Origin: Eledone cirrhosa
Lineage: Eukaryota
DNA: 64,000 bases
Assembly: GCA_964016885.1 (NCBI GenBank)
Contig: OZ024753.1
Coordinates: 29,326,001-29,390,000 of the forward strand
Reading direction: 5' to 3'
This document shows, in pieces, positions 1,278 through 45,024 of this stretch; position 1 is the first letter of the stretch; every line of letters starts with the position of its first letter. A program made the translations under genes and the position numbers. The notes under the pieces are model-generated. The model saw only the letters and a list, made by a program, of their open reading frames with translations. It was not told where the DNA came from and did no database searches.

Positions 1278-1331
<54 letters not shown>

Positions 1332-1338
<7 letters not shown>

Positions 1339-3185
1339 TAACAGATTAAAGTTTAAGCAAAGAATCGCTGCTTTCACCCTTAACGGGATCTTCTGAAACT
1401 AACAAAGTCAATCTGTAAACGCAGAAGTGGATATTTCAAAAAACGTTGCAACCGGAGGAAGACAGGAAGACGATACTTTGGTTCATGGTGACGTTCCCTG
1501 GCAAAGAACGGGAAAAAACGAATATATACGTCATTAATAGGAGCGGTGAAAAACAATTACGCGCAAAGACAGAACCACGTTTATGGTATAAAAGAGGTCG
1601 TAGACTAATGTTCTCTTAGGTGGTGCATAGAGACGTTCTCTGGCAATGAACGAAAAAAACGAAGATAATACGTCATATGTGGAGCGGGGAGAAAACCACG
1701 CAAAGACAAAACCACGTAAATGGTATAGCAGAAGTCGTAGACTAAAATTCTAACTAGGAGACCGAATGAATCTCCGCTACAGAGTTAAGAACAAAGTAAA
1801 TAAATACAATACAGAAGTAATAGAAATAAATAAATACATACACGCAAACAAATACGTACATACACAAGCATACGCAAAAACTTACCATAGGTAAACAAAA
1901 CCACGCACATATAAATATGTGTATGTGTGTGTATGCGTGTATACAAATAAATAAATAATTATATAAACGTATATAAATAAATAAATACGTATATAACAAG
2001 CGCACACACATACCTATATGTAAATACACGAATGTTCGGAGACGTAAGTCAACCAAAACATGAAGTACACATATACACACGCCCTACATACGTACGAACC
2101 TGCATGCTTACACAGACGCAAAACTCCCGTATACACATAGCCGAACCATATGTACCAGAATATATAAAAAAAATATACGCCATAACAATCAAATATACGT
2201 ACGAGAAGGTATACGTACCTTCACAAAACATACGGGTAATATATACTTACCTATGCAAATAAGTAAAGGTATAAACCAAACATATACTTAGCTCCCACAT
2301 CAAGACGTAAAATATCCACGTATAGATCGTACTATCCGTTAGGGTATAACGTGGGGCTGTAATACAGGAAAGTTTTGTGCAATTTATGTTTACAAGCCGA
2401 AATTGCCTCAGATTTTTTGTTTAAGATGTGGTCTGTGGCGTAGAGTATTTCCAGGGCCTCAGCGGCGCAGAGGTCACATGGTCTTTTATTTCCGTTATAC
2501 GATCTAGCCCTAGCTAGGATCTCCCAGTGTAACTTATATTGGGTCAGGTTGTCATTTAGACTCCAGATATAAGCTGAAAGTGACGTCATATTCCTTCTTA
2601 GAGGGTAACGAAAAGAATGGGTATACATGTAAAGACGCTGCTTGAATCTATTGGCGGTTAACCCTATGTAGGCCCTACGGGACGTGGGTGTTTCAACCTT
2701 ACATTTGTAGACAATGTTACTAGAGAGGCATTTCCCGGATAGGGGGCAATCAACCCGATTCCTACAATTACAGTTAGTACCAACTACAGTGTTGCACGTG
2801 TTCCTACGGCTAGGTAGTTTAGCTAAATTTGAAGCTGTGATGTTATGTGCAAGGTTAGGAGTCGTAGAGTAAGAAATTTTAATAGTATTTCTATTAAAAA
2901 TTTTACTATATTTATGTGTAGGGGGAAAATGCTTCGTAATAAGGGAAAGAAAGATCTTAGCTAATGGTGTGGCCACCTCCATATTATATGGTGGGTTATA
3001 CCAACAAATGCGACGGGATTTATTTCTTCTAGGTCTATTTTCGTACTCTGTATATGCTACCTTATCGACAAATCCACTTCGAGCAAGAGCTTCATTGTAA
3101 TAAGTGGAATGGTCGTTGAAAATACGCTCGTTGGTGGAAAGACGGGAAAGCCTCAACGAAACGTTTCTTACCAGGTTCTTACACA
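1332..3185 (-). mobile_element. 5'-truncated Penelope-like retroelement (PLE): end of RT/linker + GIY-YIG ORF, ~1-kb 3' UTR, hammerhead-like terminus abutting (TA)n
   Basis: Contains ORF 2332-3213(-). Downstream on the minus strand it runs to CAGAAGA-TCCCGTTAAGGGT-GAAAG (~1395-1370) and ends in a (TA)n tract. Confidence 0.85.
2332..3185 (-). pseudogene. PLE polyprotein C-terminal fragment with GIY-YIG endonuclease
   Basis: Motifs WYNPPY, KIFNRNTIKISYS, CNCR..CPLSGKCL, NIVYKC...AYIGLT..FKQR and CDLC..E are typical of PLE linker plus GIY-YIG. The RT core is absent. Confidence 0.9.
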
Positions 3186-3199
3186 TATATATGTTTTCT

Positions 3200-3597
3200 C
3201 CAAGATCAACCATGAATGAAGAGAACTATAATCTGAAACGATGCAACAGGTCGCTGATGAAAGGAAGACCAACTAATACCGGGGATTGTCCAGCCGCTTC
3301 CTCTTCGCACTGGTCACCGTCGAGATTCCAACCGTACATGGACCCCGTACTGCTGAGCTCCTCCCCAAGATCGGAACGTCACCAGCCCGTCTGAGGAAGG
3401 GGCCCCGCGAGATAGGGTGGCTGTTTCAGCGGGTGTCGCTGTCCATTGTCTGCGAGAATGCTTTTTACGGTCTTCTCCGCAGGGCGCAGCCCCACTACTA
3501 CCGCGCCCTAGTCCCAGAAGCCAACACCCTCCCTCTTCCCCCTCCCATTCTTCTGTGATCCTAGAAACCCTTGCCTTTCCCTTCCTTTTCCGTTTTC
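3200..3597 (+). mobile_element. CRE-clade non-LTR retrotransposon 3' fragment (restriction-like endonuclease C-terminus + 3' UTR)
   Basis: Frame from 3241 reads ADERKTN*YRGLSSRFLFALVTVE...GP...IG.....REIGWLFQRVSLSIVCENAF, matching the K..KY...F.P.AVET.G..G...L.QR.S....GNA pattern. A second copy of its 3' UTR is at ~4024-4138. Confidence 0.7.
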
Positions 3598-24519: not shown

Positions 24520-25231
24520 TGTGTATACATATGCCGATACATGCACATGTATATGCTTTGTTAAGTTATACTCCTGTATGATTGACTGGAGGTTTAAAAC
24601 CAGCCAACCTCGAGTCAATTATAATAGAGTGGTTCTGCTACTTAGAACGTTGTGTCAACTCACTGTTTAAAATTAACAGTCTCTCCCTTCAGCACTTTGC
24701 TATACACACCCTCCAAATATCTGCTGCATTAAAATTCTGTAATGCTTTAATAAAGTCAGCAATAACATAATGATTACATCATGCACGAAATACGATCACC
24801 ATTTAAAACACACACAGGCACACACATAAATACATACACACACACACACACGCATACCTACATTACATATATACAGACACACATATATATACATACATAT
24901 ATACAGACACACATATATATACATACATACATATACATATATACATACATATACATATATACAGTTAGGGAAGCAGAAAATATATATATATATATACATA
25001 CACATACATATATACATATACACATATATATATATATATACATACATATTATATATATATATACACACATATATATATATACATATACACACACATATAT
25101 ATATATATATACATATACACGCAACACAATAATACACCTAATACACAACCACCCACTAACAAACAGTATGCACAAAACACACTCACACACACATCCCAGC
25201 CCACCTATAACTCCACCACTGCCCATAACAG

Positions 25232-26335
25232 AAATTGTAATTGCCACCTTCCAGAGACTTGTCCATTGAATAACGAATGTTTGCATTCAAACCAAGTGTA
25301 CAGGTGCTCGGTTGAGTCGGACAACCAAACCTGGCACTACATAGGCAGCACTGCAAACACCTTCAAAACTCGTTGGTACACGCATCGTTACGCAATAAAG
25401 CACCCCCAACACCGTTACGTAACGACTCTCGCCGACAAAATTTGGCACTTAAAGGGGAGTAACCGACAATACACCCTTAAATGGACTAAACTCTCACATG
25501 CTCCTCCATACCGGAGTGGGATGAAAACGTGCCCGTTGTGTAATAATGAGCTCTTCCATATCCTAAACTCAGGCCACCAACTACTCAACAACAAAATTGA
25601 AAGGTCAATCTTTTGCCAGCATAAACTAAAAGCGAAGTTCTCACACTTCAAACCTTCAACTAAATCTTAACACTACCTCTCTTCCTTTTCTACCCTAAAT
25701 AACAATTCTACACTCCTAAAAATAGACTATATATGAAATTTAATACTTTCTTCCTTCATCTATTCTCTGGTAAAACTTTCGCCTGTCCACTACCAACTGC
25801 CACTTAATATTCTATCTTCCTTCTCTCTCCCTCTACTCATCACAACTTTTAGCACACAACCCTCCTCCCCCTCCCTTCTTGTAACTTAACTATATTCTAT
25901 ACAAATCCTCTCACACCACCCTATCTCTTGCTCTCCCTACCTCCGTCCCTTTTCTCTCTCTCTCTCTCTCCCTCTCTTTTGCCCCTCTCTCTCTCTGTTC
26001 CTCTATCTTACACTACTACCCCTTATTTCATTTCCTAAGGTCATTTCAACTTTGTATTTTGAAAATTCGGATGCCACAGTATCTTTCTTGATTGCCTATT
26101 ATTACATAGTGTAGCAATAATGGACTGAAATTCTGATGAAACAATTGTTAATACGTGGATTAAATCCTTTTGTAACTGTTTACCTTCGTCCTATTTCTCT
26201 GTTTTGATTACACTCCTCGTTTGTTCGTGTTTCCACTACAGAATCCCTACCAACCTGTCGAGTCACCTTAACGTATGTTGATAACTTTCCTCACAACTTG
26301 TTCTACCAAGCTTTGGAATATTCCTAATTACTGAA
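25232..26335 (+). mobile_element. Second 5'-truncated PLE: GIY-YIG domain (to 25670) + 3' UTR ending at (TA)n
   Basis: [22 protein letters not shown]...HYIGST...FKTRW...CPLC..E. Downstream GAAACAATTGTT hammerhead half-motif at ~26138. Confidence 0.85.
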
Positions 26336-42143: not shown

Positions 42144-42198
<55 letters not shown>

Positions 42199-42208
<10 letters not shown>

Positions 42209-42492
42209 AGATCAAAAGATGGTTAAAAGAGTTCCATGTATTTTATTATGCGCATTTCAAAAACAAATATCATCATGCAATAACATTTGTGTTTTCATCA
42301 GATAAAATAGGAAGATATGTTGATTTAAAACTGCACTATCCACAAGTGTTTTTTAACCTTCATATCATGTCTTCCTATTTTATCTGATGAAAACACAAAT
42401 GTTATTGCATGATGATATTTGTATTTGTTTTTGAAATGCGCATAATAAAATACATGGAACTCTTTTAACCATCTTTTGATCTTATATATTAT
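42199..42492. repeat. Inverted repeat, ~120-bp arms, 54-bp spacer
   Basis: Arms 42199-42315 and 42370-42492; right arm carries a 6-bp duplication. Confidence 0.95.
42376..42452 (+). ncRNA. Type I hammerhead ribozyme motif, canonical core, 8-bp helix I
   Basis: UAUUUUAU-CUGAUGA-AAA..long GU-rich hairpin..UUU-GAAAU(gcgc)AUA-AUAAAAUA. Mirror copy at 42239-42309(-). Confidence 0.8.
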
Positions 42493-42763: not shown

Positions 42764-42820
<57 letters not shown>

Positions 42821-42825
<5 letters not shown>

Positions 42826-43569
42826 TATGTACACGTACATACATATATGTATACAGACGTACAGTAGTATGTATATATATATACATACATGCACACATAT
42901 ATATATATGTACGTATGGATTCACCGAACATTTATTATAATGCTCGATGTGTTTGTAAACAAACATCCCGTATTAAGCCGTAGTGTCTAGCAACCATCGT
43001 TGCTATGTGTGCATGTATGTATATATATATATATACATACTACTGTACGTCTGTATACATATATGTATGTACGTGTACATACTTATATTTAAGTAACAGC
43101 CGTACTAAGAGTCGGAAATGAAATTTCGTTTCATTTTTTCCGTTTATCGTTTTCGGTGCACCCGGCCGATTAACCCACTCGATATGCAAATTGGGCTACT
43201 CAGCCGTTAATATGCATAAGGTAAGTATATACGTTCAACAATCTGGCAGGAAGGTATACGTTGCTGACGATAGCTAATAAGCTTGAAACTAGTACAGCGT
43301 TCCTTTGTCAGTGTTGAACAAACGAGCAACGATGGTTGCTAGACACTACGGCTTAATACGGGATGTTTGTTTACAAACACACCGAGCATTATAATAAATG
43401 TTCGGTGAATCCATACGTACATATATATATATGTGTGCATGTATGTATATATATATACATACTACTGTACGTCTGTATACATATATGTATGTACGTGTAC
43501 ATACTTATATTTAAGTAACAGCCGTACTAAGAGTGGGAAATGAAATTTCGTTTCATTTTTTCCGTTTAT
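42821..43569 (+). mobile_element. Retrozyme-like / PLE pseudo-LTR cassette: inverted 184-bp segment + ~1.3 tandem copies of a ~426-bp unit with one hammerhead
   Basis: 42821-43004 is the reverse complement of ~43325-43508; 43005-43147 repeats at 43431-43569; both ends lie in (TA)n. Confidence 0.7.
43258..43300 (+). ncRNA. Type I hammerhead ribozyme motif
   Basis: ACGUUG-CUGACGA-uAGCU(aaua)AGCUu-GAAAC(ua)GUA-CAGCGU. Confidence 0.75.
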
Positions 43570-43698
43570 ATATATATATATAATAAATTTCTATATTAAA
43601 TGTGTTGTATACATTCTACTAATGTATTAAGTACCTTACTTACTGTGGTTACCCCCAATTGAACCCGGCACGTGTGTGTGTGTGAGAGAGAGAGAGAG

Positions 43699-44722: not shown

Positions 44723-45024
44723 ATAAATTAATAAAATCAATGAAATAAAAACAAAGAACAAGTTCCTTATATTAAAAAATTCATCATTTTACGATCGTTT
44801 CTAGGATGTATATGTGTGTTGGTATGTATATCATATAGATCTATGTAAAAATAGTTCAAACTATCAGAGGAAATATACATACCTTCACGTATATATTTTT
44901 ACATAGATCTATATGATATACATACCAACACACATATACATCCTAGAAACGATCGTAAAATGATGATTTTTTTAATATAAGGAACTTGTTCTTTGTTTTT
45001 ATTTCATTGATTTTATTAATTTAT
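44723..45024. repeat. Inverted repeat, 131-bp arms, 40-bp spacer
   Basis: Arms 44723-44853 and 44894-45024; contains GAAAC(gatc)GTA. Confidence 0.95.

Follow-up and report, generated by a model that had tools for sequence, protein, structure and literature searches.

How does a short non-coding unit with a hammerhead ribozyme come to lie in a genome as one and a fraction turns of itself, preceded by an inverted piece of its own interior and embedded in a (TA)n tract? The insertion that raises this question lies in the window, by which we mean the whole 64,000-nucleotide stretch of Eledone cirrhosa DNA analysed here (contig OZ024753.1 of assembly GCA_964016885.1, forward-strand positions 29,326,001 to 29,390,000). 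Our answer, which we hold to be probable, is that the unit represents a non-coding hammerhead family of 422 nt whose two-site ends in (TA)n would arise when the reverse transcriptase (RT) of a Penelope-like element (PLE) acts in trans on a predicted circular monomer. The value of the locus lies in an unusually clear mechanistic footprint rather than in the element itself.

Anatomy of the insertion and its ribozyme

A sequence-only reading had described a ~426-bp unit present as a partial tandem (~1.3-mer), with an inverted copy of its own internal segment ahead of the direct arm, all within (TA)n. The arrangement stands as described: in a self-comparison of the window, 43004-43147 recurs at 43430-43569 with 139 of 144 positions identical, the inverted arm matches 43325-43513 once reverse-complemented, and (TA)n lies to either side (Table 1). 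The repeat is likewise real, but its period is 422, and 426 arises here only through a TA slip, the direct-repeat offset being 426 at its start and 422 at its end; the differences between the two copies, one substitution and 4 extra TA bases, both lie in the first. With the unit numbered 1-422 from window 43148 to 43569, the insertion reads as inverted unit 178-366 placed head to head, with a 1-nt overlap, against direct unit 283-422 followed by 1-422. The arm that ends at the long (T) site thus measures 562 nt, or ~1.3 turns, and the arm that ends at the short (S) site 189 nt.

Table 1. Features of the insertion, in window coordinates.
Feature	Position	Strand	Remark
Left (TA)n target microsatellite	~42768-42821	.	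sequence
Inverted arm, unit 178-366; outer end at the short (S) start site, without tail	42816-43004	-	187/189 match
Partial unit, 5'-truncated (unit 283-422)	43004-43147	+	4 extra TA bases and one substitution
Full 422-nt non-coding unit	43148-43569	+	strongly folded, z -8.1, partly from TA-rich hairpins
AG/GTAAGT donor-like motif	43219-43226	+	one subfamily only
Type I hammerhead	43258-43300	+	predicted cleavage after 43294; palindromic helix III 43288-43293
56-nt 'tail', S site (unit 366) to long (T) site (unit 422)	43514-43569	+
Tail-terminal hairpin	~43535-43563	+	conserved in 469-nt sister family
Right (TA)n target microsatellite	~43568-43582	.	sequence

The hammerhead had been called well formed, and closer inspection agrees: its helices are present (helix I of 6 bp, CUGACGA, helix II of 4 bp, GAAA and a 2-bp palindromic helix III) and carry compensatory changes. 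Among eight natural variants, pairing holds in 95% of cells and both partners have changed in six pairs, a level that 0 of 500 shuffles reached and no slid control approached, although the eight related sequences were hand-picked and include the sister family, the structure was hand-drawn, and kinship inflates such counts. The core is intact in proportions ranging from 6 of 12 to 12 of 13 units across six arrays. As far as the accessible text of PMC4209133 describes the canonical metazoan type I hammerhead, the two are alike in the 6-bp helix I, the 4-bp helix II, the 2-bp helix III with palindromic loop and the unpaired base before helix II, and the canonical form with this short helix III works as a dimer. 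Unlike it, the window hammerhead escapes Rfam, whose models gave no hammerhead match in the unit and only microRNA-like chance matches below gathering scores; it is known here from its sequence and covariation. The palindrome would allow a 6-bp intermolecular duplex of -6.8 kcal/mol, whereas a monomeric helix III is not evaluable as a legal fold, and helix III is predicted to act as a dimer.

A new family within a known class

The unit belongs to a large family. A search of the 3.0-Gb genome for an exact 33-nt core gives 9,489 copies, against 0 for a reversed-pattern control, so the family is not a product of chance. Its period is 420-426, mostly 422, and its copies range from stumps through 1.x-mers to arrays of at least 72 units. 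We analysed 117 loci, all on one contig (C1) and chosen on an intact core or donor motif: 79 were collapsed from the first 100 listed places of the 33-nt core search, and the remaining 38 were selected, with a preference for multi-unit loci, among the first 100 places listed for the donor-bearing subfamily.

The assignment to the retrozyme type made from sequence is borne out by these loci, in which the units form tandem arrays, each with one hammerhead, and none is joined to the open reading frame (ORF) of a PLE (0 of 117 loci). The unit is short and tandem, carries one type I hammerhead each and, as the sequence-only reading had it, is non-coding: no ATG frame in a natural array exceeds 51 aa. 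Copies are dispersed and numerous and bear the signs of retrotransposition, namely fixed 3' and variable 5' ends. The arrangement of an autonomous PLE, an RT and GIY-YIG ORF between terminal repeats (pLTRs), is absent from the family. In the available parts of the work on metazoan non-LTR retrozymes (PMC7229834; 10.64898/2026.07.22.740005), those elements likewise consist of non-coding, low-GC units in tandem, each with a single type I hammerhead; they number in the thousands, as anything from monomers to long arrays, and occur alongside PLEs. The 422-nt unit, known here from DNA, is slightly longer than the 170-400 nt circles reported there, and the retrozyme ends are not described in those parts as head-to-head arms with two fixed starts. 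A literature search, mostly of open-access papers without their supplements, found no description of the 422-nt family, nor of paired S/T ends in retrozymes or twin priming in PLEs. Judged by DNA-level tests, we regard the family as a putative new one of animal non-LTR retrozyme, the class itself being known.

Could the unit instead be the pLTR stump of a yet-unfound autonomous PLE, amplified as a satellite? The PLE-type tail, the inverted arm, the (TA)n target and the hammerhead would all fit, and there is a 22-nt match, weak in itself (3 of 200 shuffles score as high), between the donor context and the 3' region of a PLE in the window. Against this, in none of the 117 loci does a unit run directly into a same-strand PLE ORF; the PLE protein matches in 26 of them are separated from the unit by TA tracts or lie in opposite orientation. 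What comes after unit 422 is either unit 1 again or (TA)n, and tandem units lie inside single insertions with intact ends. We therefore consider a stump most improbable. The splice-donor-like AG/GTAAGT that the sequence-only reading had singled out is present but not conserved: of 109 units, 31 have GT at this position and 73 have GA, and the motif is absent from the 469-nt sister family. It is probably incidental, and the idea that it marks the start of a PLE pLTR intron was rejected on the same count of GT.

The sister family itself (467-469-nt unit; L043:843-1845 and L188-L206) resembles the 422-nt unit in its tail hairpin, in the unit start (first ~50 nt) and in the ribozyme core, including the helix III palindrome; one of its arms comprises 15 pieces at an exact 469 period. 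Long satellite-like arrays also occur (L031-L033, L034-L036, L037-L039), with 49-72 units or more in over 20-30 kb and neighbouring units 6-8% diverged. Contigs under two other organism labels hold the unit as well, one as a 360-nt piece with 7 differences, and the family may span more than one species.

Two end sites, one per arm

The 3' ends of the copies lie mostly at two sites. Scoring runs longer than 100 nt, with S defined as unit 358-371 and T as unit 412-422, we find 69 S, 84 T and 23 other ends among 176 runs; hence 153 of 176 3' ends fall in windows spanning 25 of the 422 positions, where 5' ends number 0 of 176. The copies are thus not freely permuted: variation is limited to their 5' ends, the 3' ends being fixed. 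The sites also combine in a regular way. The 117 loci contain 57 head-to-head pairs, of which 44 have both ends resolved, and 42 of these join one S to one T end (binomial p 1e-10; 41 of 43 without the duplicate count of the locally duplicated L132). Two pairs break the rule, L135 (TT) and L149 (SS). TA-rich DNA adjoins 76 of the 88 ends of resolved pairs, and a further 70 solo runs, without an inverted partner, comprise 38 T, 18 S and 14 others. The same rule holds in 10 of 10 resolved pairs of the sister family (13 pairs in 20 loci, 3 of the 13 being cut short by the identity filter or truncated) and, by eye, in 9 of 9 head-to-head copies of a local PLE family (L168; 15 family loci among 20 fetched). 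One end rule is thus followed, within one genome, by both non-coding families and by a PLE that is young and apparently intact.

The S and T ends are those of a PLE 'tail' with two reverse-transcription start sites, and one priming event per target strand is the simplest reading of the rule. In LINE-1 twin priming, too, both target strands prime, which gives rise to an inversion; in the 422-nt family, by contrast, the outer end of each arm falls at a fixed site of the element and the arms overlap in sequence. Its insertions show the head-to-head inverted, 5'-truncated arm, the one-sided tail and the AT-rich or (TA)n target of PLE-type insertion. Endonuclease-bearing (EN+) PLE insertions, in the accessible text of PMC8557442 and PMC3846280, share the fixed 3' ends, 5' truncation, partial tandem, inverted arm, one-end tail and AT-rich or (TA)n target; their tails are 30-40 nt, against 56 nt here, 68 in the sister family and ~100 in the local PLE, and the 422-nt family differs in lacking an ORF. 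A biochemical counterpart comes from the anole PLE in vitro, where, in the available account, both strands were cut and extended from two internal starts flanking the tail by a predicted dimer (PMC11167929). Start sites are there reported as no different between strands, whereas the 422-nt family has one site per arm, and quantifiably so. Since the outer ends are fixed, with one site per arm, a PLE-type enzyme likely copies the predicted circular RNA from the two cut strands of the target DNA at once.

The sequence-only reading had accounted for the inverted arm by fold-back. Under such fold-back or antisense self-priming (PMC3846280), one cDNA turns back and the second arm copies the first, so the second must lie within the first. 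This is so for the pair in the window and for 22 of 39 clean S/T pairs (S within T in 16, T within S in 6), several junctions carry palindromic overlaps of 16-34 nt, and self-priming has been argued for PLE palindromes (PMC3846280). In the other 17 of 39 pairs (16 of 38 with the duplicated L132 left out) neither arm contains the other, and fold-back would need an extra one-sided resection there; it must also account for a copy that ends precisely at whichever of the two sites the first arm had not used. Given that each arm has its own fixed outer end (42 of 44 resolved pairs), we prefer to see the inverted arm as a separate cDNA with a priming event of its own. Fold-back seems improbable to us, although the window pair is compatible with it and one-sided resection could rescue it. 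The origin of the inverted arm and one-sided tail of PLEs is still debated, and the near-strict rule of one site per arm, together with a monomer-length bottleneck, offers a countable footprint both for the spread of retrozymes and for the shape of PLEs.

Template and enzyme

The bottleneck is seen in rare variants, defined here by a frequency of no more than 4% among loci. Their rate of sharing is 1.85 per 1000 sites when the final two units of an arm are compared (72 arms) and 1.82 when the comparison is between terminal units on opposing arms (48 pairs; Fisher p 0.73), against 0.08 per 1000 sites between loci. Unshared variants run at 17.5 per 1000 within an arm and 20.5 across arms, and between neighbours in six long arrays at 45-72. 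Because sharing within arms equals sharing across them, and unshared variation stays below that of long-array neighbours, each insertion points to one template unit rather than to transcripts of an old array. It counts against a circle that within arms only 22 rare variants are shared and 208 unshared, with any sharing in 15 of 72 arms; the unshared ones may be post-insertion mutations. In one locus (L138), where one arm carries four units and the other five and the ends are S and T, a single private set of variants is found in all 6 whole units compared across the arms, and units are letter-identical within each arm. In another (L170), 3 of 3 whole units are identical.

At the predicted cleavage site there is no pile-up of 5' ends (3 against 4.5 expected, of 174) and no excess of deletions, which argues against a cut linear monomer. 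The 23 of 174 5' ends at unit 1 are at least partly an artefact of the query boundary and were not used as evidence. The earlier proposal of copying more than once round a monomer thus gains indirect support: rare variants are shared equally within and across arms, units are identical on both arms of young insertions, and copies do not stop at the predicted cleavage site. We suggest from these DNA-level patterns a monomer-length template that was probably circular.

The same two-site PLE priming could also have used a linear RNA, whether a multimer transcribed from a young homogeneous array and left uncut, or a cut monomer that the enzyme enters again by template jumping; the hammerhead would then be a passenger and a circle unnecessary. 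RNA read from a young array of uniform units would leave a variant pattern no different from that of a circle, and arrays of identical units exist as possible masters (L138, L170); PLE insertion in vitro took unprocessed RNA, and ribozyme mutants of the anole PLE left that insertion unaffected, in the available text of PMC11167929. Two-unit periodic patterns in L137 and L188, which point to later DNA-level duplication, likewise count against the circle. Yet a private variant common to all units would still need a one-unit bottleneck, within-arm differences are not above those across arms and lie far below those of long arrays, a cut monomer would leave the pile-up or deletion excess that is not found, and the hammerhead shows compensatory changes. 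We consider a linear template unlikely, though an alternative of some weight. A fixed allele order at unit 388 (C in the penultimate, G in the terminal unit) was entertained as proof of a linear master and rejected as an ascertainment artefact, since the DNA search skips common words and so picked copies with the window's rare C, which makes up ~2% of depth and is absent from L130-L167. The alternating A/B units of L137:2514-6826 and L075, which differ at ~3.5% of sites and in L137 form three letter-identical AB repeats, may reflect either a dimeric circle or later duplication of DNA.

Taking the circular template as our working reading, arrays would be transcribed, paired hammerheads would cut out monomers, and these would be ligated into circles. 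A PLE protein, probably a dimer, would nick both strands of a (TA)n tract, and each target 3' end would prime a cDNA, the start lying at unit 366 for one and at unit 422 for the other; each enzyme would run a variable distance, often more than once round, before the two cDNA ends were joined head to head, and long arrays would later be reworked by DNA-level duplication. At the level of DNA, the copy number, the arrays, the fixed 3' and variable 5' ends, the S/T rule and the monomer-length bottleneck are observed. More tentatively, and with somewhat less than even credence, we hypothesize that a dimeric Hydra-type Penelope enzyme grips one circular ribozyme RNA at the hairpin, with two starts 56 nt apart, one for each (TA)n strand, and travels round it repeatedly; a single double-primed rolling-circle reaction would then yield both the retrozyme arrays and the inverted, one-tailed Penelope shape, which has long lacked an explanation. 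Mobilisation of metazoan retrozymes by PLEs via circles was proposed by Cervera and de la Pena in 2020 (PMC7229834), and co-occurrence and pLTR similarity support PLE mobilisation in a study with a vertebrate focus (Li et al. 2026, bioRxiv 10.64898/2026.07.22.740005). In the accessible part of the latter, eight of nine frog retrozyme dimers did not cleave, which tells against our working reading.

A candidate partner is the L168 family (L168:2203-8000 and 14 further loci), a young, high-identity PLE with a pLTR hammerhead and a tail of ~100 nt that inserts head to head in (TA)n. It was reached by protein search and has open frames of up to ~895 aa; the reference copy has an 894-aa frame with RWK, DKT, CxCx5C, CxxC and CxH marks, which the available text of PMC8557442 gives for the Hydra clade of PLEs. 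Pfam and PDB searches did not name the PLE proteins, and the assignment follows the motifs listed in that paper together with the anatomy. Its candidacy derives solely from its target, its end rule and its youth; the unit has no significant similarity to it (in five of six local alignments 7-82 of 100 shuffles score as high, in the sixth 1 of 100). Of 57 frog retrozyme families, 24 matched a known element, mostly PLEs, in the available text of 10.64898/2026.07.22.740005, whereas for the 422-nt unit a comparison with the PLE families met in ~200 loci gave no PLE pLTR homology beyond the weak 22-nt match. With a 422-nt template and an 894-aa candidate enzyme, the proposed mechanism is directly testable in vitro.

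Retrozymes and PLEs meet elsewhere in these loci. At L170:1400-3638, the three identical whole units belong to a 476-nt variant of the family that has its (TA)n tract in common with a young PLE. At L073:1700-4760, a retrozyme dimer lies antisense in a PLE ORF with an apparent 9-bp duplication and then recurs in both arms of the PLE insertion; a chimera of retrozyme and PLE arm was rejected, and the locus reads as an antisense dimer in a PLE ORF, later carried by that PLE. The window itself holds a 5'-truncated PLE, thumb to endonuclease, at 1326-3225 (-), whose ~1-kb 3' region contains a donor-like motif and two 137-nt repeats, and within 900 nt of whose stop a hammerhead pattern search returned nothing, as well as a PLE endonuclease fragment of a different family at 24969-25670 (+). 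Other short palindromic or hammerhead-like repeats in (TA)n lie at window 42195-42490, 44723-45024, 15100/15282, 16466, 20298/20482 and 46306; they recur in many loci and are probably stumps of further PLE or retrozyme families.
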